Positions 1,322-18,335 of a stretch of 24,000 nt of DNA are shown here, in pieces (position 1 is the first letter of the stretch; each line of letters starts with the position of its first letter). A program made the position numbers and the translations under genes. The notes below the pieces were generated by a model, which worked only from the letters and a program-made list of their open reading frames with translations, ran no database searches and had not been told where the DNA came from. Source of the DNA: Aliidiomarina minuta (GTDB lineage Bacteria > Pseudomonadota > Gammaproteobacteria > Enterobacterales > Alteromonadaceae); the NCBI RefSeq assembly GCF_003987145.1, contig NZ_PIPL01000004.1, positions 120,503-144,502 on the forward strand, written 5' to 3'.

Positions 1322-1389
1322 ATAAATGCTCCTGGAAAATACTCTGTTACATTTTAAGGAGTCGATGGTGGTTTGTCCATCAAAGTTGC

Positions 1390-1410: not shown

Positions 1411-1500
1411 TTACTTATAGCCTGTTCCTGGAGTGTTTGCACGACTTCGCGGATAGTTGATTTGCTTTTGTGTATCGGCTTACTGCATCATAGACATTAA

Positions 1501-1522
1501 TTACCACTTGGTACAAAATTAT
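1501..1522. promoter_or_regulatory. Operator-like repeat, copy 1 (TTACCACTTGGTACAAAATTAT), abutting the -35 element
   Basis: Near-identical to 1551..1572, exactly 50 nt away. Contains the inverted core TACC-N4-GGTA. Confidence 0.45.
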
Positions 1523-1523
1523 C

Positions 1524-1551
1524 TTGACAGTCTCTTTGTGTCGTATATATT
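1524..1551 (+). promoter_or_regulatory. Putative sigma70 promoter of the RND efflux operon
   Basis: TTGACA at 1524..1529, a 16-nt spacer, then TATATT at 1546..1551. It lies about 70 nt upstream of the adaptor gene's ATG (1621), which has a TAAGGA Shine-Dalgarno sequence at 1609..1614. Confidence 0.4.
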
Positions 1552-1572
1552 TACCGTTTGGTACAAAATTAA
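1551..1572. promoter_or_regulatory. Operator-like repeat, copy 2 (TTACCGTTTGGTACAAAATTAA), abutting the -10 element
   Basis: Direct repeat of 1501..1522 with the inverted core TACC-N4-GGTA. Its position immediately downstream of the -10 fits repression by steric blockade. Confidence 0.45.
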
Positions 1573-1620
1573 TCGGCAGGTGTTCACGTTAAAACGGTGG
1601 GCACACATTAAGGACTTGTC

Positions 1621-2877: not shown

Positions 2878-2889
2878 TAGGGGCCTTGT

Positions 2890-5800
2890 ATGTTTTCTCA
2901 GTTTTTCATTACCCGGCCTATTTTCGCTGCGGTTATCTCACTTATTTTCTTTATAACGGGCGCTATCGCAGTCTGGCAGTTGCCTATTACCGAATATCCG
3001 GATGTAGTGCCACCCACGGTGGTGGTGACCGCAAATTATCCTGGGGCTAACCCTCGGGTCATTGCAGAAACAGTAGCTTCTCCGTTGGAGCAGGCTATTA
3101 ACGGTGTGGAAGACATGTTGTACATGTCTTCTCAGGCGACTTCAGATGGGCGCATGACGTTAACGGTTACTTTTGCCATAGGCACTGATGTGGATCGTGC
3201 GCAGAATGAGGTGCAAAGCCGGGTCGACAGGGCAACACCCCGTCTGCCGGAAGAAGTGCAGCGGCTGGGTATTATTACGCAAAAGTCGTCACCGGATTTG
3301 ACGATGGTGGTGCATTTAACATCGCCCGATGATCGCTATGACATGCTCTACCTGTCGAATTATGCTGCTTTGAATGTGAAAGATGAATTGTCCCGTATTG
3401 AGGGCGTGGGCAATGTTGAGCTCTTTGGTGCAGGTGAATACAGCTTACGTGTGTGGCTTGATCCTAATCGTATGGCGGCTTTAAATTTGTCGACCCAGCA
3501 GGTGATTGCCGCCATTCGTGAGCAAAACCAACAGGCCGCGGCCGGCAGTTTAGGTGCGCAGCCGAGTGGCTCTGCAGACTTTCAGCTGCTGATTAATGTC
3601 AAAGGTCGCCTGGAGACAGTAGAAGAGTTTGAAGACATTATTATTGATGTTGGCCCGGCAGGTGAAATCAGCCGCCTGAAAGATGTTGCCCGCATTGAAC
3701 TGGGCGCTTCTACCTATGCTTTACGCTCTTTGCTGGATAATAAAGAAGCCGTGGCCATGCCGATTTTCCAAGCTTCAGGTTCTAACGCTATTCAGATTTC
3801 TAATGATGTGCGTGCACGGATGGGTGAGTTGTCAGAAGATTTTCCGGCGGGGCTGGATTACTCCATTGTATATGACCCTACGGTCTTTGTGCGGGGGTCG
3901 ATAGAAGCGGTTATTAAAACCTTGTTGGAAGCCGTCCTACTGGTAGTGCTGGTTGTGGTGTTATTTCTGCAGACCTGGCGTGCTTCTATTATTCCTCTGG
4001 TTGCGGTGCCCGTTTCTCTGGTTGGCACTTTCGCCATCATGCACTTACTGGGTTTTTCGTTAAACGCGCTATCGTTATTTGGTTTGGTGCTCGCTATTGG
4101 TATCGTGGTGGATGATGCCATTGTGGTGGTTGAAAACGTGGAGCGTAATATTCGGGAAGGGCTGGCGCCCGTTGCGGCCACTCGTAAAGCCATGAAAGAA
4201 GTAACAGGCCCTATAGTGGCGACTACCTTAGTGCTGGCCGCGGTGTTTATTCCAACCGCTTTTATGAGTGGGTTAACCGGCCAGTTTTATAAACAGTTTG
4301 CATTGACTATCACTATCGCCACCTTCATTTCAGCCATCAATTCTTTGACCTTAAGTCCGGCGTTGTCGGCATTGTTACTGAAAAGCCCTGATGCGAAAAA
4401 AGACTGGCTGACACGAGCTCTCGACCGGGTATTCGGCCGCTGGTTGTTTGCGCCTTTTAATCGCTTTTTTAGTAGTTTATCAAATGGCTATGGCTGGCTG
4501 GTGAAAAAAGTCATTCGTTTTGGTGTTGTGGTGGGTGTGCTTTATGTGGCGCTGGTGGGTGTAGCCGGGCTGCAGTTAATATCAACACCGACCGGTTATG
4601 TGCCAGAACAGGATAAGCAGTACCTGATAGCTTTTGCACAGTTGCCGGATGCTTCTTCACTGGAGCGCACCGATGCTGTAATCCGGGAAATGTCAGAAAT
4701 TGCCCTGCAGCATCCTAGCGTTGAGACTTCTGTTGCTTTTCCAGGTTTGAGTATTAATGGCTTTACTAATAGCCCCAGCAGCGGCATTGTTTTTGTTGGT
4801 TTAAGTGACTTTGATCAGCGCACTGCGCCTGAATTGTCAGCCGCAGCCATTGCCGGTGAACTGAATGCTGCTTTTAGTGGCATTGATTCGGCATTTGTAG
4901 CTATTTTCCCACCGCCACCGGTGATGGGATTGGGCACCATTGGTGGATTCCGGCTGCAGTTGCAGGATCGCGCGAATCTCGGTTACGAAGAACTCTACCG
5001 GGTGACCTCTGAAGTGATACAAAAAGCCTGGGCAACTCCAGAGCTGGCAGGTGTTTTTTCCAGTTATCAGGTGAACGTGCCTCAGTTGGATCTGAATATT
5101 GACCGCACCAAAGCCAAACAGCAGGGAGTATCGCTGAACGAGATCTTTCAGACACTGCAGGCTTATATGGGCTCTGTGTATGTGAATGATTTTAATCAGT
5201 TTGGTCGTACCTATCAGGTCAATATCCAGGCGGACGAGCCCTTTAGGCAGGATCTGAATCAGATACGTCAGATGAGAGTGCAAAACCAATGGGGAGATAT
5301 GGTGCCGCTGGGGTCTTTTATTGATATTCAGCACAGCACAGGCCCTGATCGGGTGATGCGTTATAACGGTTTCACCACCGCAGAGATTAACGGTGGGCCT
5401 GCACCAGGATTCAGTAGTGGTCAGGCGGAAGCGGCCATAGAGCGCATTTTGCTGGAGACGCTACCAAATGGTGTGACTTATGAGTGGACAGAACTGAGTT
5501 ATCAGCAAATTCTGGCAGGTAACGCTGGGCTACTTATTTACCCGCTGGTTATTTTGCTGGTCTTCATGGTACTGGCGGCTCAGTATGAGAGCCTTAGTTT
5601 GCCCCTGGCGATTATTCTGATTATTCCGATGACTTTATTGTCGGCGATGAGCGGCGTGCTCCTCTATGGCGGAGATAATAATATCTTCACTCAGATAGGC
5701 TTGATAGTGCTTGTTGGTTTAGCCACTAAGAACGCTATTTTGATCGTTGAATTTGCTAAAAGCCTGCAGGATCAGGGCATGCAGGTTATGGATGCGATTT

Positions 5801-6063
5801 TGCAGGCGACCCGGCTTCGTTTGCGGCCCATACTGATGACCTCCTTTGCCTTCATTATGGGGGTAGTGCCTATGGTGTTCTCCACAGGGGCAGGTGCAGA
5901 AATGCGCCAGGCCATTGGTGTGGCTGTGTTCTCGGGCATGATCGGGGTTACTGTTTTTGGCTTAATACTGACGCCATTGTTCTATTACATGCTGGCAGTC
6001 CGGGCGGATAAAAAGCCTGAAGCTGAGCAGGGTACTTTGTTACAGGAGAAGCCGCATGCGTAA
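2890..6063 (+). CDS. RND multidrug efflux permease (HAE1 family, AcrB/MexB-like)
   Basis: 1057 aa. Starts MFSQFFITRPIFAAVISL...ITEYPDVVPPTVVVTANYPGA. Has 12-TM architecture with two large periplasmic loops and the conserved GIVVDDAIVVVENVER segment. Confidence 0.95.
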   Translation: MFSQFFITRPIFAAVISLIFFITGAIAVWQLPITEYPDVVPPTVVVTANYPGANPRVIAETVASPLEQAINGVEDMLYMSSQATSDGRMTLTVTFAIGTDVDRAQNEVQSRVDRATPRLPEEVQRLGIITQKSSPDLTMVVHLTSPDDRYDMLYLSNYAALNVKDELSRIEGVGNVELFGAGEYSLRVWLDPNRMAALNLSTQQVIAAIREQNQQAAAGSLGAQPSGSADFQLLINVKGRLETVEEFEDIIIDVGPAGEISRLKDVARIELGASTYALRSLLDNKEAVAMPIFQASGSNAIQISNDVRARMGELSEDFPAGLDYSIVYDPTVFVRGSIEAVIKTLLEAVLLVVLVVVLFLQTWRASIIPLVAVPVSLVGTFAIMHLLGFSLNALSLFGLVLAIGIVVDDAIVVVENVERNIREGLAPVAATRKAMKEVTGPIVATTLVLAAVFIPTAFMSGLTGQFYKQFALTITIATFISAINSLTLSPALSALLLKSPDAKKDWLTRALDRVFGRWLFAPFNRFFSSLSNGYGWLVKKVIRFGVVVGVLYVALVGVAGLQLISTPTGYVPEQDKQYLIAFAQLPDASSLERTDAVIREMSEIALQHPSVETSVAFPGLSINGFTNSPSSGIVFVGLSDFDQRTAPELSAAAIAGELNAAFSGIDSAFVAIFPPPPVMGLGTIGGFRLQLQDRANLGYEELYRVTSEVIQKAWATPELAGVFSSYQVNVPQLDLNIDRTKAKQQGVSLNEIFQTLQAYMGSVYVNDFNQFGRTYQVNIQADEPFRQDLNQIRQMRVQNQWGDMVPLGSFIDIQHSTGPDRVMRYNGFTTAEINGGPAPGFSSGQAEAAIERILLETLPNGVTYEWTELSYQQILAGNAGLLIYPLVILLVFMVLAAQYESLSLPLAIILIIPMTLLSAMSGVLLYGGDNNIFTQIGLIVLVGLATKNAILIVEFAKSLQDQGMQVMDAILQATRLRLRPILMTSFAFIMGVVPMVFSTGAGAEMRQAIGVAVFSGMIGVTVFGLILTPLFYYMLAVRADKKPEAEQGTLLQEKPHA

Positions 6064-7432
6064 TTTTAAAGCCGCAGGGCTGCTATTTTCACTGCTGTCT
6101 TTAACTGCCTGTGCGACGGTTGGGCCTGACTATGCACAACCAGAGCAGGTTGCTGATATTGATTTCAGCAGTCCTTATGAACAGCCGCAGGACGTTTTAA
6201 AGTGGTGGCAGGCGTTTGCAGATCCCCACCTTGATGCATTAATAGATATCACCTTGCAGAACAATCGCACATTGGCCAGTGCAAGCGCCAATGTAGAGCG
6301 TGCCTATGCGGTTTTCACTGATGTGGATAACGACTTCATGCCCGATCTGGGTCTGGAAACCGGTTATCAGGCAAACCGTAATGCTCTTTTTGCAGGCGGA
6401 GATCAGGTACTACGCGGTTACCAGAGTGGGGCGCGTTTGAGCTGGGACCTGGATCTGACTGGCAAATTACGACGGGCAAGTGAAGCGGCGGCTGCACAGG
6501 CTGACTATGCAGAAATTCTGTGGCACGACGCGCAACTGCAACTAGTCAGTCAGGTAGCCACCAGTTACGGTGAATACCGCGGTGCCCAACTGCGCTTACT
6601 GGTAGCACAGGAGAACCTGCAAAACCTGCGTCAGAGTCAGGACATTATTATTGCCCGTTATGAAGCGGGCATGGCTTCTGAACTGGAAAAAGCTCGTTTT
6701 GCAGCCCAGGTACATGAAGTCGAAGCGCTGGTGCCTGATTTTGAACTGGCCTTGCTGACGGCTGAGCTCACCTTATCGGCACTGTCCGGTCAACGCCCTG
6801 AGCAACTTGAACTGGGTGAAGTTGCCATGCTTCCGGGGCTACAGGGGCCCGTGGCCATCGCAAATGGTGAGAACTATTTGCGCTATCGTGCGGATGTGGC
6901 CAGTGCCGAACGTTTGCTAGCGGCGCGTACCGCAGAAATTGGTGTTGTCACTGCAGACTTATACCCCAATTTATCGCTGAATGGTTTTCTGGGGTTTGCC
7001 TCCACTCCGGGCCTGTCTTTGGGCTCGGAGCAGCGCAGTTGGGCGGTAGCTCCTACGCTCAGCTGGCAGGTTGCGGAACTGAGTTCGGTGCGCAGCCGCA
7101 TACAGGCCGCTAATGCCAGTCAGCGCATGGCATTGGCTGAATTTGAGCAAAGTGTATTTGATGCGATTGCGGATATGCAGTTGTCGTTGCACAGTTATAA
7201 TCTCAGTCGCCAGCAACAGTTAGCTCTGGAACAGCAATGGAGTGCAGGCAATAATGCAGTGTCTCTGGCGCGAGCCCGTTATCAGGCAGGAGGTGCTGAG
7301 TTTCTGGAATTACTGGAGTCAGAACGGGAGCTGTTACGCAGCAGCGATCGCCTGGCTCAGGTGGAGCAGCAAAACTTCGCTCGCTTGATTGATATATATA
7401 GAAGCTTTGGTGGGGGCATCAAATTACTATGA
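6056..7432 (+). CDS. Efflux outer-membrane factor lipoprotein (NodT/OprM family)
   Basis: 458 aa. Lipobox LSLTAC|A followed by VGPDY. Duplicated OEP repeats. Its start overlaps the pump gene by 8 nt. Confidence 0.9.
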   Translation: MRNFKAAGLLFSLLSLTACATVGPDYAQPEQVADIDFSSPYEQPQDVLKWWQAFADPHLDALIDITLQNNRTLASASANVERAYAVFTDVDNDFMPDLGLETGYQANRNALFAGGDQVLRGYQSGARLSWDLDLTGKLRRASEAAAAQADYAEILWHDAQLQLVSQVATSYGEYRGAQLRLLVAQENLQNLRQSQDIIIARYEAGMASELEKARFAAQVHEVEALVPDFELALLTAELTLSALSGQRPEQLELGEVAMLPGLQGPVAIANGENYLRYRADVASAERLLAARTAEIGVVTADLYPNLSLNGFLGFASTPGLSLGSEQRSWAVAPTLSWQVAELSSVRSRIQAANASQRMALAEFEQSVFDAIADMQLSLHSYNLSRQQQLALEQQWSAGNNAVSLARARYQAGGAEFLELLESERELLRSSDRLAQVEQQNFARLIDIYRSFGGGIKLL

Positions 7433-7456: not shown

Positions 7457-8119
7457 CTATTGAATGTCAGCTTCGCGAGCATGCACCCGAATCGAACGAT
7501 AGGCGGCGGTAGCGGATGAGTTGCTGTTGTCGCAGTCGGTCATGATGGCGATGGCGTTTATTTTATCCGGGGCTTCGCCGTGAAAGTTGATGAAGTCTTC
7601 TTTCATGTCCCGGGTTTCGGTGTGCCATTCACCGTCTTCGGGAACTCCCTGACGTTGCGCTATCATGTGTGCCTGGCTGGCGAAGGGGTTGGGCCAGTCC
7701 TGGCCAACTGGGGTATGTTGGGTCCAGACGTAGTTCAGCGCGCGGGTGCGCCAGCGTAATATAGAGTGTTCGCGCAGCACATAAATACGGGCGGCGAAGT
7801 CGTCGCCGCGTTTTTGTTGTTCATCATCAGTGTCCGGAAATTGAGTGATGCGCCACTCCCAGCTGATCATGGGGGTCTCGTCTAAATCAATGTCACCACG
7901 GTAAAATAACCCTGAGGCCTGTCCGTCCTGGCACTGGGCTAGCACATGGGCTGGCTCGCGGTCACCGAACTGCTCATCAACCAATAGATATTGAGTGTGA
8001 CCTTCAAAAGAATGGGAGTCCCATTTTATGATGTCTTCGGCCTGCCAGTTCAGGCTGGCCTGCGCACTGCCAACAGCAGCAGCCATTGACAGTAATATCC
8101 AGTGATACGATTTTTTCAT
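7457..8119 (-). CDS. Secreted DUF3047 domain protein
   Basis: 220 aa with a signal peptide (MKKSYHWILLSMAAAVGSAQA). GDDFAARIYV, LNYVWT...PNPF and AIAIMTDCDNSNS blocks match my recollection of the DUF3047 consensus. Confidence 0.65.
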   Translation of the reverse strand: MKKSYHWILLSMAAAVGSAQASLNWQAEDIIKWDSHSFEGHTQYLLVDEQFGDREPAHVLAQCQDGQASGLFYRGDIDLDETPMISWEWRITQFPDTDDEQQKRGDDFAARIYVLREHSILRWRTRALNYVWTQHTPVGQDWPNPFASQAHMIAQRQGVPEDGEWHTETRDMKEDFINFHGEAPDKINAIAIMTDCDNSNSSATAAYRSIRVHAREADIQ

Positions 8120-8147: not shown

Positions 8148-8190
8148 CTGGCATTCCTATCGCTCTTGACCAGAGCAACTGGAATGCCAG
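8148..8190 (-). terminator. Long hairpin downstream of the six-gene operon; possible terminator lacking a U-tract
   Basis: CTGGCATTCC (8148..8157) pairs perfectly with GGAATGCCAG (8181..8190). An inner GCTCT/AGAGC stem lies between them. There is no clear T-run on the minus strand, so the terminator call is weak. Confidence 0.3.
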
Positions 8191-8220: not shown

Positions 8221-8763
8221 TTATTTGAACTGCTCGTCGACAGGCGTTTGCGCCATGTAATTAGTGTAATTGCTCAGGGTTTTCTGGCCTATGACTAAAA
8301 TCACTTCGAGCACTTGCTGCTGCTTGTAGCCGGCGTCATAGAATTGTTTTACTGCGGACTCATCAACTTTGCCCTGTTGTTTAATCATGGCCTTGGTAAA
8401 CTGACGTAAGCCCTCGAGTTTGTCGTCCTCAAGTTTCTTATCATTCAGAATAGCCTGATTAAGCTCATCAGATACGCCCATTTGCTTGGCAATGGCGCTA
8501 TGCGCTGGCTGGCAATAATGACAGTTATTTACAACATTCACGGTTTGCCAGACCACGGTCAGTTCTTCTTTGTTGAGGCTGGTTTTATTGGCCAGATTAT
8601 CCAGCGTAAGATAAGCCTCGAGTAGCTGAGGCGCTTCGGCCATGACGCCATATAAATTAGGAATGAAGCCAGCGGCCTGTTCCGCTTTTTCCAGTAAGCC
8701 CTTGCTGCCTTGTGGGGCACTGTCTTTTGTGTGGATATTAAAATCAGTCATATTGTACTCCAT
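8221..8763 (-). CDS. Carboxymuconolactone decarboxylase (CMD)/AhpD-like family protein with a CxxC motif
   Basis: 180 aa. NCHYCQPAHS is the AhpD-like CxxC...H signature. An alternative start at 8751 (MTDFNIH) has a better GGAG Shine-Dalgarno sequence. The listed start is 2 nt after the upstream stop. Confidence 0.8.
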   Translation of the reverse strand: MEYNMTDFNIHTKDSAPQGSKGLLEKAEQAAGFIPNLYGVMAEAPQLLEAYLTLDNLANKTSLNKEELTVVWQTVNVVNNCHYCQPAHSAIAKQMGVSDELNQAILNDKKLEDDKLEGLRQFTKAMIKQQGKVDESAVKQFYDAGYKQQQVLEVILVIGQKTLSNYTNYMAQTPVDEQFK

Positions 8764-8765
8764 CG

Positions 8766-9653
8766 TTAAGTTAACTTTTGACGTAGTTGAGGGTTTATCT
8801 TGGCTACCGGCACGATAATGCTAAGTTCGTAAGCGTCGGCAAAGTCATCGTCCAACGCGGCATCGCCGAACCAGATATGTGACCCCAGCGATAAATACGA
8901 TTGTAAAATCCTGGGTATCTGGTTGCCGGTAGCGGCTAATTGCTGCTGCAAGTATTGAATACGGGGCCTGTCGTTAAGAGATGTGGCCGCTGTAAAATCA
9001 AGTCTTGCCTGGGTTTGATAGTTGAGACCGGGTTTGGCTGTCATCAACGGCTCAGGTGGTGCATACAGCTGCTGACAGAAGGTGATGATAATATCCAGGG
9101 CTTCTGGCCCGAGGCTTTTATATAAAGAAACATTACCGAAAAAGTAGTTGACCTCTTTTCGTTGTGCAAGCAAAGCATTTAACCCAGCCCAGAGTGCAAA
9201 AAATCCAAACCGGGCGGCACCTGCCTCATGGTTGACTACTGAGCGACCCAGCTCAATCGACTGTTTCAAAACACGACTACTAAAAAAGTCACTGTAGTCG
9301 AACAGCTGCGCCGTGCGTAACACCTCAATATTTGCCATCGCATCTCTGCCGGGCTTAAAACGATAGAGCGCAACTATCTGCAAACGATTAGGATCCCAGA
9401 CCACGAGCTGAAGATAACTGGCGGGACCAAAATCACGGGCATCGGTATCCCGGGTTAAATTTCGCCCCGCTCCGGCCTGGCGAAAAGTAGCCTCACGAAT
9501 GCGGCCCACTTCATTCATGGTTATGGGTGCCTCGTCGGCCTGCAGCACGTAGACCCGCAGGCCACGAAACTCAGTCAGCGCGCTGAACGAATCCAGTTCA
9601 CGCTGAAGGTCTTGGCTTTGCTCGGCGTGAGCAAGGGGGACGTCGAAAGTCAT
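8766..9653 (-). CDS. GNAT-fold N-acyltransferase of the OlsB/GlsB/OlsF-C-terminal type (aminolipid N-acyltransferase-like)
   Basis: 295 aa. The block IREATFRQAGAGRNLTRDTDARDFGPASYLQLVVWDPNRLQIVALYRF matches the remembered consensus of the Acetyltransf_5 aminolipid N-acyltransferase family. GAGG Shine-Dalgarno sequence 7 nt before the ATG at 9653. Confidence 0.7.
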   Translation of the reverse strand: MTFDVPLAHAEQSQDLQRELDSFSALTEFRGLRVYVLQADEAPITMNEVGRIREATFRQAGAGRNLTRDTDARDFGPASYLQLVVWDPNRLQIVALYRFKPGRDAMANIEVLRTAQLFDYSDFFSSRVLKQSIELGRSVVNHEAGAARFGFFALWAGLNALLAQRKEVNYFFGNVSLYKSLGPEALDIIITFCQQLYAPPEPLMTAKPGLNYQTQARLDFTAATSLNDRPRIQYLQQQLAATGNQIPRILQSYLSLGSHIWFGDAALDDDFADAYELSIIVPVAKINPQLRQKLT

Positions 9654-11217
9654 GGTTTACCTCGTTAAAATGTCGGGGCAAGGCGTAACTGCGTGCTTTG
9701 CACCATTGCATACGCTGTTGGTCGTTAACGCCACAGGCCTGCAGCTCAATGGGCTGCATCGGCACATCAATAAAAAACTGCGGTCGCCGGATATATGGTT
9801 TAAGGGTTTCGCGGGGCAACAGCAGCATTTCCAGGTTAAGCCTGATTCCCAGCAAATTACGCACTTTATGAATGCAGTAGAACAAAGATGAATTACGTGA
9901 CTGTATAAACATAGGCACTAACGAGCGTCGATAGCGTAGTGACAAGGTGGCTATGCTTTTTGCCCAGGCACCATCATCTAACTCTCCATGCACAGAATAG
10001 CGCGCGGTTTTACCCGCTGGAAAAACCAGTAAGGGAGCTTTACCGGCAAATGCCTGAGTAACGGCGGCTGTGGATGCTTTGCGCGCTTCAAATACAGAAA
10101 CAGGAACAATCAAGTCTTGTAAGTGACTTAAAGTCAGCAAAGCGTCATTGGCGATGACCCTGAGGTTAGGGTAGCGTTTTTGCAGCGCTGCGATTGCTAT
10201 TAAACCGTCCACGCCCCCGGTGGGGTGATTGCATACAAATACGAGGCGGGCATTAGCATCAGGCCATCTCATCGCTTGTAACTCAGGTTCCACGCCGAGC
10301 AATTGCAATGCCTTGTCTGCCACACGATCCGGCGGCACCGAATCCAGTTTTTGCAGTAATTTATTCAGCCTTTTTTCCGCAATCAACCAGCGTAAGGTCG
10401 CCCATTTTATAGGGCCGAAAGACTGAGCAAGCTGGGGCTGGTATGTGTCCAGAAGGGTCTTGCTGCTGACCCGAGAAACCCTGCTTACAGGTTGGCTGGA
10501 TGAGGCCAGTTTAACCATCAGATCTTCACCGGTTTCCCTGCTTAAGGCTTCAGGGTAGCCGGGCCAGTAGCACATGCTGCCAAAATGCTGGCCTATGGTT
10601 ATATGGGTCACACTGATCGTCTGAGTGGTTGCACGCCGCATGGCGATTCCAAACGCTGAGCCTAAAATGCCTCGGGAAGCGTGTAATTTTTTGAGAGCCT
10701 CAAGACCAGCATGAGCTGGTAATTTTAACCGTGCCCAGGTGCGTCGAAGCCAGGGCGTCCAGCGCGGAGCCAGGCTTGAACTTGAAACAGGAGAGCGGGG
10801 CGCCAGAATATGACGCAGTTGCTTCCCGTCCCAGTTGAACTGTACAGGCTCATGAAAACGGTCAAAAATAAGCAGGATAAAAGGGCGATATGTTGTCAGT
10901 GCCCTGGGTTCAAGACGAAGATTAATGGCGTCCCAGTTCGCACAGTGGGCAAGGTTTTTGATTAGCAGTCCCCGGCTTGTGCTAGCCGTCTGAGTCTGGG
11001 CCTGATGCTGGTAATTATTCAGCAGGCAAAATACAAATCCTTTATCATTAAAAGCGGTCCAGCTACCACCTCCCTGGGGATCAATCGGCATAGCGGCGCT
11101 TATACCCTGAGCTTTAAAAAGTTCTGGTCCGCTCGCCGATGCACGGCTGTTCTGCTCGTCGCGGTTGATCAGGACGTGCAGTTTATGAGCTTCAAAACAC
11201 CAGCTTATGGTGCACAT
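9598..11217 (-). CDS. Fusion protein: N-terminal NRDE/TANGO2-like domain plus C-terminal PlsC-like lysolipid O-acyltransferase domain
   Basis: 539 aa. The N-terminus MCTISW...VLINRDEQNSR...DPQGGGSW carries the eponymous NRDE motif and Cys2. The C-terminal half has VFVCNHPTGGVDG (acyltransferase block I variant) and LLVFPAGKTAR (block III-like). Confidence 0.75.
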   Translation of the reverse strand: MCTISWCFEAHKLHVLINRDEQNSRASASGPELFKAQGISAAMPIDPQGGGSWTAFNDKGFVFCLLNNYQHQAQTQTASTSRGLLIKNLAHCANWDAINLRLEPRALTTYRPFILLIFDRFHEPVQFNWDGKQLRHILAPRSPVSSSSLAPRWTPWLRRTWARLKLPAHAGLEALKKLHASRGILGSAFGIAMRRATTQTISVTHITIGQHFGSMCYWPGYPEALSRETGEDLMVKLASSSQPVSRVSRVSSKTLLDTYQPQLAQSFGPIKWATLRWLIAEKRLNKLLQKLDSVPPDRVADKALQLLGVEPELQAMRWPDANARLVFVCNHPTGGVDGLIAIAALQKRYPNLRVIANDALLTLSHLQDLIVPVSVFEARKASTAAVTQAFAGKAPLLVFPAGKTARYSVHGELDDGAWAKSIATLSLRYRRSLVPMFIQSRNSSLFYCIHKVRNLLGIRLNLEMLLLPRETLKPYIRRPQFFIDVPMQPIELQACGVNDQQRMQWCKARSYALPRHFNEVNHDFRRPPCSRRAKPRPSA

Positions 11218-11693
11218 TTTTGCTGGTACTCCAAAGTGGATGCATGCACACCGATGGAGGGCTCTGCCTCAACACCAAAGTCAGTCATGATGATGCGAAT
11301 GAGTGCCAGGTGGTGGATGGTATGACTGCATACAAAATCCAGTTCCCGGGCCAGGTTGGTGGCTAACCTTGTTGTTCCTGATTGATAGATCAAAGGGTGA
11401 GCATAGGGAGAATCAATGGCACCTAGTGTCTCTTGAATTTCATCAATCCGTGTTAATGCCGCCTGAGGCTGTGTTTCCAGAATGGGATCTCTTCTGCGTT
11501 CTGAATAATCAAGCAGTCCATTTTTAAGCGCCAATATGAGCTGAGAATAGTGTTCCAAAACATGTCGGCTGTGGCGGCCGATGCTTGCCTCCTGTGGTAG
11601 CTTTGAGGCGGCTGCATATTGACGGTCACCGAGCTCGGCAATCACATCTTTTAGTGCATTTAACTGAGCCAGATTGGTAGTTATTAGTTCCAT
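11205..11693 (-). CDS. DinB superfamily (DinB_2-like) metal-binding protein
   Basis: I chose the ATG at 11693 (MELITTNL), 1 nt after the upstream stop; the track ORF extends to 11744. The histidines in HSRHVLEHY and CSHTIHHL fit the DinB His triad on a four-helix-bundle-sized protein (162 aa). Confidence 0.7.
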   Translation of the reverse strand: MELITTNLAQLNALKDVIAELGDRQYAAASKLPQEASIGRHSRHVLEHYSQLILALKNGLLDYSERRRDPILETQPQAALTRIDEIQETLGAIDSPYAHPLIYQSGTTRLATNLARELDFVCSHTIHHLALIRIIMTDFGVEAEPSIGVHASTLEYQQKCAP

Positions 11694-11694
11694 G

Positions 11695-11946
11695 TTATTC
11701 AGGCTCCTGTGCTGATTGGTCTCCAAAATTCTGAGCAGCGGCACTGAAAGAAGATACGCAGAAAGGTACCAGGAAGTTCAGGTACAGATTGATCCAGTCA
11801 ATGGGGGCCTGTTGAAAAATGCTGTCAGACTGGTTAATCAGGTTCAGTAAACTACCGACTACCAGAGATACCAGGGCAGCTCTTCGCAAAATAGAAAAAG
11901 AAAAAAGTACGCGCAAGAACGGTCGAATCTGGTATCTCATCATCAT
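11695..11946 (-). CDS. Small two-TM membrane protein, NrtS-like
   Basis: 83 aa. The core RRAALVSLVVGSLLNLINQSDSIF...LNFLVPFCVSSFSAA resembles the remembered consensus of the small NrtS nitrate/nitrite-transporter family (LNLINQGD, VP-x-VS). The assignment is from memory only. Confidence 0.45.
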   Translation of the reverse strand: MMMRYQIRPFLRVLFSFSILRRAALVSLVVGSLLNLINQSDSIFQQAPIDWINLYLNFLVPFCVSSFSAAAQNFGDQSAQEPE

Positions 11947-11948
11947 TA

Positions 11949-12338
11949 TTATTTCATTATATTGCGTAGCGCACGGGTTAGTTTTTGCTGTCCTTCAGGG
12001 GTATCGAGATCGGTTTTTGAAAAATACAGGTAATTATTGTCGGCATCAGGCAAGAGTCTTCGAATTTGCGACTTTGCCTGGTCGTGGGTCAGCAGGCTGG
12101 CGAATACAAGGGGTAAATCAGGCGACGCTGCTCGCAGTTTATCAACGACTTCTTTTGCTGATAGTGGCAGTGCGGACTGCAAGGCTAACGAAACGACTGC
12201 GGCCCTGGCTGTTTTACCCAGGCGCTTAAGGTCGTCTTCATTTTCTGCCGCGGCATAGGTGAGCTGCGCGGCGGATAAAAAAGGTTTTACCTGGCTAACA
12301 ATGAAGGGATGCGGACGAGCTAAGAGTATATCTGGCAT
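11949..12338 (-). CDS. Hypothetical protein, first gene of the operon
   Basis: I chose the ATG at 12338 (MPDILLARPHPF), which has an AAGGA Shine-Dalgarno sequence 7 nt upstream; the track ORF starts at 12371. 129 aa with an alternating beta/alpha-looking pattern. No family recognised. Confidence 0.55.
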   Translation of the reverse strand: MPDILLARPHPFIVSQVKPFLSAAQLTYAAAENEDDLKRLGKTARAAVVSLALQSALPLSAKEVVDKLRAASPDLPLVFASLLTHDQAKSQIRRLLPDADNNYLYFSKTDLDTPEGQQKLTRALRNIMK

Positions 12339-12420
12339 TACTTTTTCCTTGTTAATGTATAGACTAGCCATATTCGTTAATAACTATCCGTTATCTTAGA
12401 TACTCGGAGTACTGATAACC

Positions 12421-13341
12421 ATGACCGAAACAACGGTGCAATCAACCAAAACAACGGAAGCTGTTGATAAGCTACTTGGCGAACTGGCATTTGGCTCGAG
12501 TTTGTATTTTGAATCGGGTTTCTGTAATAGCTGGAATATGCTTACTGAAAAGTCCGATAAGGCAGGGCTGCATCTGATCACTCAGGGCCATATCTGGTTT
12601 GCCATGCCGGGTCAGCTGGAAACTCAATTTAAAATGGAGGCGGGCGATGCGTTGTTCTTAAGCCATGGTTTCCGGCACTGGCTAAGCGATGAACGGGTGC
12701 AGGCTGAGCAGGCAGGAAGCGACATGACGCAGGTTTGTATTCCAGAGCACCTGGAGCAGGGGCTGGTTTGTTATGACGTAGATGTCAGGTCATCCTTAAC
12801 TAAAACTTTGTTTGAATTGATGCCGGATTATATTCATTTGCCGGCTAGTAAGCAGAGTGATCAGTTGGCGCAACTTATCGCCATAGTTCAGGATGAGGCG
12901 GCAAGGCAGCAGCCAGGTTACTCGGTAGCAGTCAGTCGGCTAAGTGATGTTATTGTGCTGCATTTAATTCGCCAGGTATTAACAGACGAGAGCATTGCCA
13001 GTGGTCTGCTTAATGCGTTGCGGGACGATGTGCTGAGGAAGGTATTGGTTGCCATGATGGGTGACCTGACTCAGGAATGGACGGTGGATGCCATGGCGGC
13101 AACCGCCTTTTTGTCACGAAGTGCCTTTGCCGAGCGCTGTCACAAAGTGCTAGGGATGTCACCGAAACATGTGATTGATACGCTGCGCCTGCAGCACGCC
13201 CGCCATTTACTGATTCATACCCAGGACACTATTGACAAGATAGCTGAGTCGGTCGGCTACCAGTCCGCAACAGCATTTATTCGCTTTTTTAAACAGCGCG
13301 CAGGATGCGCCCCGGGTGAGTATCGACAACTGCAGGCATAA
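12421..13341 (+). CDS. AraC family transcriptional regulator with an N-terminal cupin-type sensor domain
   Basis: 306 aa. The C-terminal double helix-turn-helix (WTVDAMAATAFLSRSAFAERCHKVLGMSPKHV...IDKIAESVGYQSATAFIRFFKQRAGCAPGEYR) is the AraC signature. The gene is divergent from the six-gene operon. Confidence 0.9.
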   Translation: MTETTVQSTKTTEAVDKLLGELAFGSSLYFESGFCNSWNMLTEKSDKAGLHLITQGHIWFAMPGQLETQFKMEAGDALFLSHGFRHWLSDERVQAEQAGSDMTQVCIPEHLEQGLVCYDVDVRSSLTKTLFELMPDYIHLPASKQSDQLAQLIAIVQDEAARQQPGYSVAVSRLSDVIVLHLIRQVLTDESIASGLLNALRDDVLRKVLVAMMGDLTQEWTVDAMAATAFLSRSAFAERCHKVLGMSPKHVIDTLRLQHARHLLIHTQDTIDKIAESVGYQSATAFIRFFKQRAGCAPGEYRQLQA

Positions 13342-13436: not shown

Positions 13437-13865
13437 ATGAAATATATTCTAAGTGCAATCGTTGGATTCTGTGTTGTTGCGGCAAGCGCAATTTGGTTTA
13501 GCACGGCATCTGCTTCTGATACCTACCTGAAAAACTTTAAGCATAGTTTTACCGAGAGCGCCTATGAACAGGCAAAAGAGGACAATAAGTTAGTACTTAT
13601 TGACGTCTATGCCACCTGGTGTCCTACCTGCCGTCGTCAGCAAGATGTGCTGAATGACTACTTTGCAGAGAACCCGGATAGTGAAGTGGTGGTGTTTGAG
13701 GTCGACTACGATGATCAGAAAGAGTGGGTCAGTTACTTTCAGGCACCGCGCCAGTCAACTCTGGCGTTGTATCGTGGTGACGAGCGACTTTGGTTTAGTG
13801 TGGCACAAACCAATAAAAGCGCTATTTTTGAGGCGTTAAACGAGCATGACGCAGGGGGTCAGTAA
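13437..13865 (+). CDS. Exported thioredoxin-fold protein (WCPTC active site)
   Basis: 142 aa. Signal peptide MKYILSAIVGFCVVAASAIWFSTASA. Active-site motif ATWCPTCRRQ. GGAG Shine-Dalgarno sequence upstream. Confidence 0.85.
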   Translation: MKYILSAIVGFCVVAASAIWFSTASASDTYLKNFKHSFTESAYEQAKEDNKLVLIDVYATWCPTCRRQQDVLNDYFAENPDSEVVVFEVDYDDQKEWVSYFQAPRQSTLALYRGDERLWFSVAQTNKSAIFEALNEHDAGGQ

Positions 13866-13867
13866 GC

Positions 13868-14569
13868 ATGGAGCTTACAGCTATTCCGCTGGCGCTCGTC
13901 GCGGGCGTGCTTAGCCTGCTGTCACCCTGTGTACTACCCATGGTGCCGGCAGTCACGGCTTCAGCCATGCGCGCATCACGTTCGGGGATATGGTTCTTAG
14001 GCTTAGGGCTGGCGCTTACTTTTGCTTTGGGCGGCTCGGTTTTAACTTATCTCTTTATGAGCATGGGAACGACCCCTGATGTGCTGCGTCATTTCGCTGC
14101 GGGGCTTATGCTGGTGATGGGCTTTGCCTTAGTGAACAGCCGTTTGAACATGTTGGTTTCTACTGGTTTGTCGCGCATGATTAGCTACTTGCCCAATGGC
14201 GGTAATATTCAGGCGGATTCGTCCCATCCGGCGTTTCAGTTTGTGATTGGCGGGTCGTTGGGTTTAATCTGGTTACCCTGTGTGGGTCCAACCTTAGGGG
14301 CTGCCATTGCGCTGGCATCGACCGGTGAGCATCTGACCATGTCTTTCTTAGTGATGCTTGCTTTTGGTATAGGTACGGCGGCACCTCTGATTGCTATTGG
14401 TTATTTTGCAGGGACTAAAATTCAGGCGTTGAGAAGCTCGGCCAAAGTGGGTCGCCTGGTATTAGGGTATGCTTTGCTGGTCATCGCTTTGATGATATTC
14501 ACAGGCTTTGACAAAGTACTTGAAACCATTGCTATCGAATATCTGCCGGACTGGGTTACCCGCATCTGA
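13868..14569 (+). CDS. CcdA/DsbD-type transmembrane thiol-disulfide electron transporter
   Basis: 233 aa polytopic membrane protein. Has LSPCVLPMVP and a second LPCVGP cysteine motif typical of CcdA. Starts 2 nt after the thioredoxin stop. Confidence 0.85.
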   Translation: MELTAIPLALVAGVLSLLSPCVLPMVPAVTASAMRASRSGIWFLGLGLALTFALGGSVLTYLFMSMGTTPDVLRHFAAGLMLVMGFALVNSRLNMLVSTGLSRMISYLPNGGNIQADSSHPAFQFVIGGSLGLIWLPCVGPTLGAAIALASTGEHLTMSFLVMLAFGIGTAAPLIAIGYFAGTKIQALRSSAKVGRLVLGYALLVIALMIFTGFDKVLETIAIEYLPDWVTRI

Positions 14570-14579
14570 GCAGGTTAAG

Positions 14580-15596
14580 CTATTCCGGGGCCGCGACCTG
14601 CGTGGTTGCTCGGCCCTGGCCTTTGGCCTGGTACATGGCTTTGTCAGCGGCTAGCAACAGGTTGTCATCCAGGTTTGCCGACTTTACCTGAATACCAATG
14701 CTTAACGAGCATTCAGTCGCTATCGGCTGGGAGAGTTTCTTAAACTGTTCACGCAGGCGTTTGGCAGCCTGTTGTGCGTTTGCAACAGTAGCGTTACTAA
14801 GAATCCAGAAAAACTCATCGCCTCCCATACGTGCACAAATGTCGGTATCCCGGCTGCACTGTATCAATGCCTGGCCGAATGCGGTTAATAGATCGTCGCC
14901 GACAGCGTGACCATGTTTGTCATTAAGTTCTTTGAAGTTATCCAGATCAATAGCTATTACAGCAACTGAGCTTGATTCATGTTGCTGCTTTAATTCTGTC
15001 CAGCGGCTTTCAAAACCACGACGGTTCAGCAGTCCGGTGAGACTGTCGGTATTGGCCTTTTGAGACAACTCTTCGGAGTGTAATTTAACTTTGCGTAAAC
15101 GTTTTCGGGTGCGTTCATAGCGTTGCGATAAGCGCGAGATGTTATGCCACTGATCAAGTTGCAGGCTGATAGCTTCTGCCAGTAACTCAAGCTGCTGTGT
15201 AGCCTCAGGAGATAAGCTGTGTTGCCTGGAGCTGGTCGCACACAGGCTGCCAATGACCTGTTCTGAGTTACGCACTGGCAACACCACAAAGGTTTGCATG
15301 CCTAAGGAAGCCCCTGTGCTATGCGGATACTCGTCTTTTACCCGGGTACTGATAATTGAATCGTTGTTAAAGAGTAAGCGACACATAGAGTCCGACCAGT
15401 CGAGTTCAGTACCGGAGTCGATCTGGATGTCTTCGCTGCCTTCAACCCAGATAACCTGCTGACGTTGTTGCACGGCATCTATGTAAGTGACAAAAATAGT
15501 CTCCAGGCCGGTTATCAGGCTGGCTAATTTTAGTAAGGGTTGTATCGACTTTTCTAACTGTAAGAAAGAGCCGGAAAACTTATCAGTTCGGCGCAT
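14580..15596 (-). CDS. GAF-GGDEF diguanylate cyclase
   Basis: 338 aa. N-terminal GAF-like region, a coiled linker, then SLTGLLNRRGF...AIDLDNFKELNDKHGH...RDTDICARMGGDEFF. The GGDEF motif is intact and an RxxD I-site (RDTD) sits 5 residues upstream. Confidence 0.9.
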   Translation of the reverse strand: MRRTDKFSGSFLQLEKSIQPLLKLASLITGLETIFVTYIDAVQQRQQVIWVEGSEDIQIDSGTELDWSDSMCRLLFNNDSIISTRVKDEYPHSTGASLGMQTFVVLPVRNSEQVIGSLCATSSRQHSLSPEATQQLELLAEAISLQLDQWHNISRLSQRYERTRKRLRKVKLHSEELSQKANTDSLTGLLNRRGFESRWTELKQQHESSSVAVIAIDLDNFKELNDKHGHAVGDDLLTAFGQALIQCSRDTDICARMGGDEFFWILSNATVANAQQAAKRLREQFKKLSQPIATECSLSIGIQVKSANLDDNLLLAADKAMYQAKGQGRATTQVAAPE

Positions 15597-16808: not shown

Positions 16809-18335
16809 TTAACGGCGGAAACCGATACGAAAGCCGCCCCAGTGTTTGCCCCTGATGAAAATTGGAACCGACAGGTCATGCAAAATTTCCCCTGTGTCGC
16901 GCTTATAGGTCTGCAGTAACATAGGTTGCGTATTGCTGCCACAGCGACTGCCCGTGCGGTCGCTGAAAATACGCTTGCTGCGGTTATGAATCAGATCCTG
17001 TTCGTAGTTGCCGGTAAGCGGCTGACTGAATTTTTTATTGTGGGTGGGGAAGTACCCTTTACGATCGACGGCCCCTGCATACATAATATTTGCGTGGTGC
17101 TGCAAAACAGGCTCCTGAATATCTGCAAAGTGGTCATCGCTGAAGCTGTCATAATCGGTGTGATATTTTTGCGGGTTGGTGCCTTTAATAGGGCGATAGT
17201 TCTGACTGAAAACAGCAGACTCGCTTAGCTCCCCGGTTGCAATTGCGTCTTCAAATAAATCGCTTATGGCCTTGGCGGCGCGCTTTGCTTCTTCTAAAAC
17301 AGGTGCATAAAAGCTATTGTCACTGACTTGACTTAACTCCAGATATATAGTTTCAGTTTCTTCGGATAAGCTTACCGCCTGATCCGCGATTGTCTGTCCT
17401 TTGTTTTCTATGTCGTCAAGTGTCTTCGTAAGGTTGACGACTGACTGGTTCATCTGACCGCTGGTTTCATATAAACCGACCGAGACCTGCTCTATTTGTT
17501 CAAGCGTTGTAGAAGCCGAACTGATTTGTTGATTGATTTTATTAAAGCCACTGGCTGTCTGCTGCAACTCTTGCTGTACCTGATCACTGTTAACTTTGAG
17601 TTGTTGCATGAGTTCCGCGCTTTGCTGACTTTGATCACGGATATCGCTGAGCATCGAAGTGATTTCCTGTGTTGCCCCGGACGTTTTAGCTGCCAGGTTG
17701 CGGACTTCGTCGGCGACGACCGCAAAACCACGCCCCTGTTCTCCTGCCCTTGCTGCTTCAATAGCGGCATTTAACGCGAGCAGGTTGGTCTGTTCAGCTA
17801 CCTGCGTAATGACTTCCGTGATTTTCTGAATATTATCGGCGCTGCTGCGTAGTTGATCGAGTTTTTCAGCAGTGTGGGTAATGAAATCCGCCAGTTCGTT
17901 AATACGGCTAACCCCTTTCTGTAAACGCTCATCGGCTTCTGCGGTAGAGGACGCGGTATGTTGCAGCGTGTCCGTAATGCTCTGCATGCTATGACTGAGC
18001 TGATTGCTGGTGCTGGCTAGTTGCTCGCTGGCGCCGCCAAGTTCGGTACTCGCCTGACTACTATGCTGGATTTCATTGATTAGCCCGTCGATATAAAATG
18101 AAACTTCGGCGGCGCCGATGGCCAGTTTAGAAGTGGCTTCATTGATGCTTTTAATATCAGGCTCGGGCGCAACGTCAATCTGAGTCTCTGTTTTACCAGG
18201 GCTGAACTGAGAGGGCAGAAAAATAGCAACACCTGCCACAATAGTCACCAGCACGACAGAAAGCCAGGCGGGGACATTAAGCCAAAGCAGAACGATCTGC
18301 GACAGCACCACAAGCAAAACACCCAGATACTTCAT
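16809..18335 (-). CDS. Methyl-accepting chemotaxis protein with a C-terminal extra domain
   Basis: 508 aa. Two N-terminal TM helices with almost no loop between them. Highly conserved signalling hairpin [38 protein letters not shown]. This is followed by a roughly 170 aa C-terminal domain ending [12 protein letters not shown]. Confidence 0.9.

Follow-up and report, generated by a model that had tools for sequence, protein, structure and literature searches.

Organization of the locus

We analysed a 24,000-nucleotide (nt) stretch of the genome of the soda-lake bacterium Aliidiomarina minuta (contig NZ_PIPL01000004.1, positions 120,503 to 144,502 of the forward strand), here called the window, in which six minus-strand open reading frames (ORFs) lie between 8221 and 12371. 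In gene order they encode a 129-aa protein, an 83-aa protein, a DinB-like protein, a 539-aa fusion of an NRDE/TANGO2 domain with a PlsC-type acyltransferase domain, a GNAT-type N-acyltransferase and a CMD-family protein (Table 1). The first five of these, together with the neighbouring AraC-type regulator, are 100% matches to the records CWE09_13860-13885. We describe below a conserved gene trio within this operon, DinB, NRDE-PlsC and GNAT, and the case that the operon probably serves the synthesis of an amino-acid-containing membrane lipid (aminolipid).

An initial annotation, made from the sequence alone, had reported a minus-strand block of six packed ORFs, and every junction it claimed was found where it had been placed. 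The 129-aa gene stops at 11949-11951 and is separated by a 2-nt spacer from the next ATG at 11946, and the 83-aa gene stops at 11695-11697, leaving a single nucleotide before the DinB ATG at 11693. The DinB stop (11205-11207) and the NRDE ATG (11215-11217) overlap by 13 nt at 11205-11217 (AATGTGCACCATAA), with the stop sitting within the ATG-TGC-ACC start of the NRDE-PlsC gene. Further downstream, the PlsC stop at 9598 and the GNAT ATG at 9653 create a 56-nt overlap (9598-9653). GNAT has its own Shine-Dalgarno sequence (GAGG, 7 nt upstream of the ATG), and its stop (8766-8768) is followed, after 2 nt, by the ATG of the CMD gene at 8763. Because the gene order and the 13-nt overlap are kept in other genera, this packing is beyond chance.

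The ORF of the first gene was present as described, but the longer form from 12371 did not hold: its start is most likely the annotated ATG at 12338 (129 aa, CWE09_13880), which has an AAGGA Shine-Dalgarno sequence and at which the orthologues begin. The longest ORF of the DinB gene opens with GTG at 11744, and 11693 is the annotated and orthologous start. For the CMD gene, a start at 8751 with GGAG upstream is likelier than 8763, as the 180-aa form is absent from records. The divergent cupin-AraC gene at 12421 was confirmed by its Cupin_6 and HTH_18 domains (12421-13341), and the hairpin at the end of the block (8148-8190) by RNA folding, which gave an interrupted 18-bp stem with a centroid energy of -29.5 kcal/mol (z = -3.4; 200 shuffles gave none as stable). 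Scans for Rfam families and tRNAs across the window returned no match, and its base composition showed no anomaly pointing to recent transfer.

Table 1. Genes, domains and structural elements of the operon and its immediate flanks (coordinates of the window)
Feature	Position	Strand	Basis
129-aa protein without known family (CWE09_13880)	11949..12338	-	Annotated start
NrtS-like 83-aa protein, two hydrophobic segments (by eye)	11695..11946	-	NCBIfam NF038050
DinB/YfiT-fold predicted metalloprotein, 162 aa (CWE09_13870)	11205..11693	-	Model and orthologues
NRDE/TANGO2 domain, residues 1-236 of the 539-aa protein CWE09_13865	10510..11217	-	Pfam and model
PlsC/Acyltransf_2 domain and 23-aa tail overlapping the GNAT gene	9598..10455	-	Pfam and NCBIfam
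OlsB/GlsB-type N-acyltransferase (GNAT), 295 aa (CWE09_13860)	8766..9653	-	Pfam and NCBIfam
AhpD-like CMD protein, C81-H-Y-C84 and H88	8221..8763 (start possibly 8751)	-	Pfam CMD
Hairpin in the 101-nt spacer after the CMD gene	8148..8190	-	RNA fold
DUF3047 protein, signal-peptide-like N-terminus, downstream of the hairpin	7457..8119	-	Pfam DUF3047, 166 bits
Cupin_6 and HTH_18 (AraC-family) regulator	12421..13341	+	Pfam
Thioredoxin, signal-peptide-like N-terminus, co-directional with the regulator	13437-13865	+	Pfam
DsbD_TM/CcdA-like membrane reductase, co-directional with the regulator	13868-14569	+	Pfam

The acyltransferase pair

Searches with profile hidden Markov models (HMMs) placed both ORF 8766-9653 and the C-terminal half of ORF 9598-11217 in the aminolipid acyltransferase families, as the initial annotation had proposed. 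ORF 8766-9653 matched Pfam Acetyltransf_5 (PF13444) at 39.6 bits (cutoff 22.4), NCBIfam GlsB at 170 bits (cutoff 300), NCBIfam OlsB at 34 bits (cutoff 320), and positions 278-567 of OlsF, which form its C-terminal half, at 161 bits (cutoff 620); the alignments with GlsB and with this half of OlsF span 262-288 residues. Residues 258-516 of the 539-aa protein matched Pfam Acyltransf_2 (PF19576) at 130 bits, NCBIfam GlsA at 150 bits (cutoff 260), and positions 10-268 of OlsF, the N-terminal half, at 113 bits (cutoff 620). In a structure model of the fusion protein, the C-terminal domain was matched by Foldseek to the squash glycerol-3-phosphate acyltransferase 1k30. The PlsC motifs NHPTGGxDG (NHPTGGVDG here) and FPAGxTAR (FPAGKTAR here) showed no variation in 28 homologues, and an NHPxGxxDG motif is also found in GlsA-like and OlsF-like proteins.

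OlsF is the bifunctional ornithine/lysine lipid synthase of Serratia proteamaculans, Flavobacterium johnsoniae and Vibrio cholerae, composed of an N-terminal Acyltransf_2 domain followed by a C-terminal OlsB-type domain. The window proteins align with its two halves in unchanged order and have the motifs NHPxGxxDG and FPxG in common with it, so that, as far as the alignments tell, the PlsC and GNAT genes reproduce OlsF split at its domain boundary. In contrast to OlsF, however, the two activities in the window lie on separate, overlapping ORFs scoring far under the 620-bit cutoff, the O-acyltransferase bears an extra NRDE/TANGO2 domain of 240 residues, and a DinB gene is coupled upstream. GlsA and GlsB, which belong to the Bacteroides glycine lipid (flavolipin precursor) system, gave the best NCBIfam matches and are also separate genes with the O-acyltransferase preceding the N-acyltransferase. 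Identity to them is only about 30%, against 38-55% among the DinB-linked GNATs, and the Bacteroidia loci lack an NRDE domain, a DinB gene, an AraC regulator and thioredoxin neighbours. As the equivalog cutoffs of GlsA, GlsB and OlsF were all missed widely, the window proteins form a lineage of their own, and these enzymes give no basis for naming the head group. The cluster thus appears to work like OlsF and GlsBA, yet to be orthologous to neither.

The split between the two genes is a regular feature. PlsC and GNAT were separated with overlaps of 4-56 nt in all six loci having gene calls, and GNAT followed the PlsC gene in every related locus having enough flank. The C-terminal tails (P/S)-S-C-S-R-R of the gammaproteobacterial fusion proteins are a by-product of the reading-frame overlap at this junction. 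Database names such as 'putative hemolysin' are attached to some relatives.

The NRDE/TANGO2 domain

The assignment of the N-terminal part of the fusion protein to NRDE/TANGO2 was borne out by Pfam and by a structure model that best matched human TANGO2. Pfam TANGO2 (PF05742) scored 38.3 bits (cutoff 22.6), with residues 1-125 aligned to model positions 1-133 of 257. A profile built from the full-length fusion gave nothing against the Protein Data Bank (PDB) except a chance match to acetyl-CoA carboxylase; since it missed TANGO2, a profile of the NRDE domain only was needed, and one built from 15 such domains reached human TANGO2 (8sv7/9bwa) at E = 3e-5. In this profile alignment, the NRDE, GGTW and Asn positions of the domain line up with human TANGO2, the Asn with N75, whose part in the active site has been described along with those of the other residues (PMC13044924). 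The A. minuta protein has C2, N18-R19-D20-E21 and N67. Met-Cys2 is found in all full-length members of the main family, the NRDE motif in all but one (P0034, with NRDA), and N67 showed no variation across 28 members.

The AlphaFold2 model of the whole fusion protein was of good quality (pLDDT 89.3, pTM 0.89) and gave its N-terminal domain the alpha-beta-beta-alpha fold of N-terminal nucleophile (Ntn) hydrolases. The top Foldseek matches of this domain were human TANGO2 9bwa and 8sv7 (E = 1e-9) and then CV2077 (3gvz), followed by isopenicillin-N acyltransferase, penicillin V acylase, acid ceramidase, bile-salt hydrolases and NAAA. With the TANGO2/NRDE family, which includes the human protein, Shewanella HtpA and Chromobacterium CV2077, the domain has in common the Met-Cys N-terminus, the NRDE, GGxW and LxN motifs and the Ntn fold. 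Unlike these proteins, it is fused to an acyltransferase and paired with DinB, its identity to them is 15%, and the Pfam match spans the first half of the model only. The domain is therefore a true but distant member of the TANGO2 family.

Human TANGO2 is reported to bind acyl-CoA in a manner that depends on the NRDE motif, and its loss to lead to an accumulation of lysophospholipids (PMC11867700); within the family, such binding is reported for the human protein only. The crystal structure points to a Cys-Ntn hydrolase with a large amphipathic cavity for fatty-acid derivatives (PMC13044924).

The DinB-like protein

The DinB assignment was confirmed through orthologues and a structure model. 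The window protein itself stayed under the Pfam cutoffs (DinB_2, 16.9 bits against 24.8; DinB, 16.4 bits against 23), whereas orthologues from Alkalimonas, Arsukibacterium, a Polyangiaceae genome (29.6 bits) and the cluster P0192 (24.6 bits) were above the cutoff, and the AlphaFold2 model (pLDDT 95.7) matched the DinB/YfiT structures 2f22, 1rxq, 3dka and 6iz2 with TM scores of 0.6-0.77. In 23 orthologues H41, R43, H44, Y63, R66, R68, R116, E117, H124, H127, H128 and T153 are identical, with H44, H124 and H128 as the predicted metal-binding triad. This dense set of invariant residues makes the protein very probably an active metalloenzyme, and it represents an uncharacterised subfamily of the DinB/YfiT fold.

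Bacillus subtilis YfiT, the Mycobacterium tuberculosis mycothiol S-transferase and the DinB domains of EgtB and OvsA have the same four-helix bundle, in which the first long helix carries one His (corresponding to H44) and the last an HxxxH motif (H124, H128). Identity to these enzymes is only 10-16%, the best structural matches are uncharacterised structural-genomics proteins, and H41, R43, Y63, R66, R68, R116, E117 and H127 are extra invariant residues of the new subfamily. To our knowledge, NRDE, PlsC or cytochrome c partners have been described for no characterised DinB enzyme. The Cys-Ala-Pro end of the DinB-like proteins is a by-product of the 13-nt reading-frame overlap with the NRDE start.

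Conservation of the DinB, NRDE-PlsC and GNAT trio

The six genes had been proposed to form one unit. What proved conserved is the trio, while the AhpD-like, small membrane protein and 129-aa genes are lineage-restricted. In a taxon scan with one genome per species, the synteny of the trio extended to about 30 other genomes, with the order DinB, NRDE-PlsC, GNAT kept in three phyla (Pseudomonadota, Balneolota and Myxococcota). The fusion was found in the gammaproteobacterial genera Alkalimonas, Arsukibacterium, Alishewanella, Rheinheimera, Aliidiomarina, Idiomarina, Bacterioplanes, Salinispirillum, Saccharospirillum and Natronospirillum, in Cyclonatronaceae and Balneolales metagenome-assembled genomes (MAGs) of the Balneolota, and in one Polyangiaceae MAG of the Myxococcota. 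We take these taxa to be mostly organisms of soda lakes or alkaline habitats. In nearly all loci that tblastn resolved with enough flank the order was kept; two Balneolales MAGs gave no tblastn match for DinB. The 13-nt overlap between the DinB stop and the NRDE start is kept from gammaproteobacterial genera such as Alkalimonas to the Polyangiaceae MAG, and in Balneolota, where the order is likewise kept, the two genes lie 4 nt apart. The fusion family is a small one: clustering at 90% identity gives 34 clusters, and the 1.84 billion clusters at 50% identity include about 35 full-length representatives.

Several variants of the arrangement exist. In the metagenome contigs L150, L153 and L154, DinB, NRDE and PlsC are consecutive separate genes, followed in L150 by GNAT; the other two contigs end within or just after PlsC. 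DinB-PlsC fusions without NRDE replace NRDE-PlsC upstream of GNAT in two independent clusters, of 486 and 493 aa (L037:6446-7906/P0193 from Natronospirillum operosum, and P0192). In Wenzhouxiangella, DinB is followed by PlsC alone and then GNAT, and in locus L135 a DinB-like gene is directly followed by an OlsB/FeeM-type acyltransferase, with no PlsC match in the short contig end after it. The two different fusions and the conserved adjacency of DinB, NRDE and PlsC are strong comparative evidence for a shared function, and the three probably form a physical complex, as their gene arrangements suggest. In the same scan, PlsC was followed by GNAT in 26 of 28 Bacteroidia GlsA/GlsB-type loci and occurred by itself in the other two, and none of the 28 had either DinB or NRDE. 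DinB and NRDE are thus add-on modules that define a separate lineage.

The wider DinB-like family

A profile search recovered more than 115 clusters of this DinB subfamily. In two loci (L073:6001-7246, Psychromonas, and L075:6001-7133), a stand-alone DinB-like gene directly precedes a stand-alone TANGO2-family gene, in L075 with an overlap of about 13 nt, and no acyltransferase match was obtained within the 6-kb flanks of either. Such stand-alone pairs mean that DinB-like and NRDE proteins form a module in its own right, at least by gene arrangement.

The wider context was sampled in 80 metagenome loci (L076-L155). In 60 of them a membrane-anchored SoxA/TsdA-type cytochrome c gene lies downstream of the DinB-like gene. 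Most of these 60 also have, upstream of the DinB-like gene, a gene for a TTL/ATP-grasp protein of 800-1100 aa with a PqqD-like domain (examples of this context are L107:4962-6253, L108:4962-6267, L121:993-4283 and L122:4953-6218), and nine have a stand-alone NRDE gene between DinB and the cytochrome. In L112 and L122, DinB and cytochrome were read as a single 421-aa ORF. We considered DinB as a lipid-specific partner and rejected this idea, because its main context elsewhere is the TTL/ATP-grasp-PqqD protein and cytochrome c. Genes for CMD, DUF3047 and VTT-domain/flavoprotein-reductase proteins also recur in the metagenome DinB-like loci; these families are found around the operon in the window as well.

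Regulator and redox neighbours

The regulator scored 103 bits for Pfam Cupin_6 and 86.6 bits for HTH_18. Its architecture is that of RclR, which controls the reactive-chlorine regulon of Escherichia coli: the same Cupin_6 domain joined to an AraC helix-turn-helix, with cysteines in the sensor domain and a divergent position beside redox genes. The target genes differ, however, and with 108 bits in NCBIfam RclR against a cutoff of 400 the window protein is no RclR orthologue. C35, C106, C117, H51, H82, H86 and H110 are identical in 20 orthologues. In 20 of 38 related loci the regulator gene is divergently oriented to the operon, which it likely controls; the thioredoxin/DsbD_TM pair stands beside the regulator in 16-17 of the 38.

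Other thiol-redox genes are found elsewhere. A thioredoxin-fold gene precedes DinB in Cyclonatronaceae, and an AhpC/TSA gene does so in the Wenzhouxiangella MAG. Directly upstream of the trio in a Cyclonatronaceae MAG (L003:447-4000 and 6822-7289) are ergothioneine-type and thiol-redox genes, namely Methyltransf_33 (EgtD-like), FGE-sulfatase (EgtB-like), a flavoprotein disulfide reductase and thioredoxin. Thiol-redox genes recur independently as lineage-specific accessories.

The assignment of the last gene of the operon to the CMD family, with a CxxC motif, was upheld: C81-H-Y-C84 is present in the sequence, and Pfam CMD (PF02627) scored 29.4 bits (cutoff 23). The protein reached 59 bits with the peroxidase-related model TIGR01926, which is under the cutoff, and the AhpD-core models also stayed under theirs. 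A CMD gene downstream of GNAT was seen in the window, its 91% relative, Alishewanella and Natronospira only, and CMD genes lie near DinB-like genes in 11 of the 80 metagenome loci.

Proposed function

The reading of the operon as an aminolipid synthesis locus was supported, since neither the HMM placement nor the synteny check refuted it. We hold it somewhat more probable than all other explanations together that the operon encodes a synthase of the OlsF/GlsBA type, equipped with NRDE and DinB modules, that makes an N-(3-acyloxyacyl) amino-acid lipid in two steps. In the first step, GNAT (8766-9653) would N-acylate an amino acid with a 3-hydroxy-fatty acyl thioester to give a lyso-aminolipid, and in the second, the PlsC domain of the 539-aa protein would O-acylate the 3-hydroxyl. 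This order of steps is taken from the two-step logic of OlsBA, OlsF and GlsBA; the acyl donors of OlsF are still unidentified according to a review (PMC12971839). The fused NRDE domain would most likely bind a fatty-acyl thioester or the lyso-lipid and present it to the acyltransferase, possibly via an acyl-Cys2 intermediate, or else edit the amide. An acyl-handling role is suggested by the reported acyl-CoA binding of TANGO2, the build-up of lysophospholipids upon its loss and its amphipathic Cys-Ntn cavity (PMC11867700, PMC13044924).

The DinB-fold enzyme is translationally coupled to the fusion protein and probably acts in a complex with it. It would carry out a metal- or thiol-dependent step that alters or provides the head group or the acyl chain. 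Expression would probably be set by the Cupin_6-AraC regulator, with its three invariant cysteines, on oxidant or redox stress of the envelope, and the thioredoxin/DsbD pair and the AhpD-like protein may act as lineage-specific redox helpers. Induction by oxidants is proposed because a regulator of RclR architecture occurs together with thioredoxin, DsbD and AhpD-like genes. The analysis itself establishes the domain identities, folds, motifs, gene order, fusions and phyletic distribution; we infer the lipid product and its acyl donors, what NRDE and DinB do, how the genes are regulated and their transcription as one unit.

A number of observations weigh against this interpretation. PlsC-type enzymes need no covalent acyl carrier, so that a hand-off role of NRDE has no precedent. 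The scores below the GlsA, GlsB and OlsF cutoffs leave membership in the membrane-lipid class itself unproven. In the fusions P0185, P0033, P0197 and P0201 (L038:6479-7912), Cys2 and the NRDE motif are lost (the N-termini being MDALTW, MPSLSW, MKTLTW and MSASTE), which suggests that these NRDE-like domains play a structural or binding role in those lineages, and L036 and L037 are without any NRDE domain. With NRDE degenerate or absent in some lineages, the domain is dispensable for the acyltransferases. Most DinB-like relatives stand in the TTL/cytochrome context, and hence the chemistry of DinB is not restricted to lipids. The hairpin has no U-tract and the terminator pattern scan made no call there, no promoter could be assigned to the operon by a promoter pattern scan, and a literature search for lipid data on Aliidiomarina, soda-lake taxa and Cyclonatronum yielded nothing usable. 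Purified human TANGO2 showed no lysophospholipid acyltransferase activity (PMC11867700). Finally, the cytochrome c context of the DinB-like genes leaves room for the contested haem hypothesis (PMC10470608 versus PMC12782551).

Instead of de novo synthesis, the operon could serve remodelling or repair under oxidant stress, similar to a Lands cycle, which we regard as unlikely though deserving attention. The Cys-Ntn domain would then hydrolyse damaged aminolipids or N-acyl lipids at their amide or ester bond, PlsC and GNAT would re-acylate them, and DinB and the AhpD-like protein would handle oxidised acyl chains or peroxides. In agreement with this, the NRDE domain is structurally closest to lipid-amide hydrolases and transferases (bile-salt hydrolase, acid ceramidase, NAAA and isopenicillin-N acyltransferase; PMC13044924), and AhpD-like, AhpC/TSA and thioredoxin genes and genes for regulators of RclR architecture recur beside the core. 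However, a complete pair of N- and O-acyltransferases is what de novo synthesis requires, the AhpD-like and peroxiredoxin genes are present in some loci only, and the rest of the cluster is kept in lineages without Cys2 or without NRDE. Moreover, no TANGO2-family protein is known to have hydrolase activity.

We find it rather improbable that the product is a released N-acyl amino acid, of the kind made by commendamide or N-acyl amino acid synthases, acting as a surfactant or signal after tailoring by DinB and NRDE. Acetyltransf_5/FeeM-type enzymes do include N-acyl amino acid synthases, the DinB-like gene of L135 is directly followed by such an acyltransferase with PlsC unseen in the short contig end, relatives carry the name 'putative hemolysin', and the window has an RND efflux operon at a distance of 0.8 kb. 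In contrast, almost all loci have an O-acyltransferase partner, which is the signature of diacylated membrane aminolipids (PMC12971839), and the efflux operon is not kept beside the cluster elsewhere.

NRDE and the DinB-like protein could also serve haem or metal handling, as for Shewanella HtpA, with the link to acyltransferases being secondary; to this we give little credence. HtpA reportedly binds haem and promotes cytochrome c maturation (PMC10470608), and the 60 of 80 metagenome loci with a membrane-anchored cytochrome c after the DinB-like gene, nine of them with NRDE in between, would fit such a role. Nevertheless, the role is contested (PMC12782551), a crystal study of the human protein saw non-specific haem binding only (PMC13044924), no haem or Ccm gene was found in the window, and haem trafficking would hardly account for a covalent link to a lipid acyltransferase that persists in three phyla.

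Still less credible is a mercapturate-like pathway for thiol conjugates, in which DinB would act as S-transferase, the Ntn domain as amidase and GNAT as N-acyltransferase to produce a lipidated cysteine conjugate. Such a trio parallels the mycothiol and bacillithiol detoxification route, the S-transferases for bacillithiol and mycothiol are among the DinB/YfiT-fold enzymes (structural matches at lower rank), and thioredoxin, AhpD-like, EgtB-like and EgtD-like genes are nearby in some lineages. The proposal is built by analogy, however; no thiol-biosynthesis gene is consistently linked, and the N-acyltransferase, a long-chain enzyme of the OlsB/GlsB class, has a lyso-lipid O-acyltransferase as its partner. 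Lastly, we rejected PlsC and GNAT as a frameshifted OlsF, and an incidental arrangement of such a broken gene beside unrelated ones is hardly conceivable: although the 56-nt overlap falls exactly at the junction of the OlsF halves (OlsF positions 268 and 278), GNAT has its own ATG and Shine-Dalgarno sequence, the same split recurs in the six loci with gene calls and in about 30 genomes, the catalytic motifs are without variation, and the fusions and the DinB/NRDE overlap are kept across phyla.

Implications for aminolipid synthesis and TANGO2

The known bacterial routes to aminolipids are OlsBA, OlsF/GlsBA and OlsHI. If the aminolipid synthase reading is right, the cluster would add a fourth architecture, with a probable redox trigger, and it predicts an undescribed lipid or lipid modification. 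A 2026 review of aminolipids makes no mention of DinB, NRDE or TANGO2, the papers on TANGO2 structure, acyl-CoA binding and bacterial homologues leave acyltransferase fusions and a DinB partner unmentioned, and our literature searches found no paper on an NRDE-PlsC/DinB architecture and none naming TANGO2 together with DinB; a broad search on gene neighbourhoods of TANGO2 gave nothing relevant.

The interest of the operon rests less on the lipid pathway than on the bearing of the fusion on a human disease protein. The function of TANGO2 is disputed between haem trafficking, acyl-CoA binding and Cys-Ntn hydrolysis (PMC10470608, PMC12782551, PMC11867700, PMC13044924). The natural fusion of NRDE with a lyso-lipid acyltransferase supports a lipid-acyl role by an independent, comparative line of evidence, and the unfused four-gene versions and the widespread DinB partner count in the same way; the TTL/ATP-grasp/cytochrome context bears on the haem-versus-lipid debate as well. 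As the operon is small enough for expression in E. coli, it may provide a bacterial system in which TANGO2-type proteins can be tested on lipids.

Tentatively, and with less confidence than in the synthase itself, we further suggest that DinB-like and NRDE/TANGO2 proteins are a conserved bacterial two-protein module acting on fatty-acyl thioesters or N-acyl lipids. If this were true, the fusion to a lyso-lipid O-acyltransferase would be a domain-fusion clue to function: TANGO2-family proteins would be direct partners of LPLAT/PlsC-type acyltransferases and would deliver the acyl group or proof-read it, which would explain the accumulation of lysolipids in human TANGO2 deficiency. The product would then be a previously undescribed redox-responsive aminolipid of haloalkaliphiles.

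Accessory and flanking genes

The 129-aa protein had no match in Pfam or NCBIfam. Its orthologues were found in Alkalimonas, Arsukibacterium, Alishewanella and the 91% relative only, each upstream of DinB, and its gene is present in 10 of the 38 related loci. The gene for the 83-aa small membrane protein is present in 13 of the 38. This protein matched the NCBIfam model NF038050 (NrtS) at 25.5 bits over 43 residues, which is marginal against the cutoff of 25, and its context revealed no nitrate link. In Alkalimonas and Arsukibacterium, the stop of this gene overlaps the DinB start by about 13 nt. The NrtS-like gene is repeatedly paired with an HD_5 gene (L002:6367-7535, L006:6367-7535, L001:15550-16709, L024 and L025), and in Salinispirillum and Saccharospirillum the NrtS-like protein is part of ORFs of about 600 aa.

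The DUF3047 gene was absent from the other fusion loci, and in 9 of the 80 metagenome loci a gene of its family is found no more than about 1 kb from a DinB-like gene; it is possibly linked to the operon, though outside the conserved unit. Further away in the window, a gene of the fatty-acid-hydroxylase family (20141-20995) has OlsE as its best NCBIfam match (86 bits, far under the cutoff) and is followed by a VTT/DedA domain fused to a flavoprotein disulfide reductase (21005-23161). Close orthologues of this fusion (E about 1e-260) occur 1.7-4 kb from DinB-like genes in several metagenome loci.

On the other side of DUF3047, positions 707-7432 hold a gene for a TetR regulator and a full RND efflux operon comprising membrane-fusion protein, AcrB-type pump and outer-membrane factor; these genes were not kept beside the cluster in other genomes. 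The thioredoxin/DsbD pair is flanked by genes for a GAF-GGDEF diguanylate cyclase (14580-15596) and a methyl-accepting chemotaxis protein (16809-18335), and GGDEF or EAL genes, detected by similarity to the GGDEF protein of the window, recur near DinB-like genes in 15 of the 80 metagenome loci. In Alkalimonas amylolytica, a bufferin-type operon for a ribosomally synthesized and post-translationally modified peptide (BufA1, MbnB/TglH, HvfC_N and DoxX; L002:2306-4863) sits between the thioredoxin/DsbD pair and the AraC regulator.

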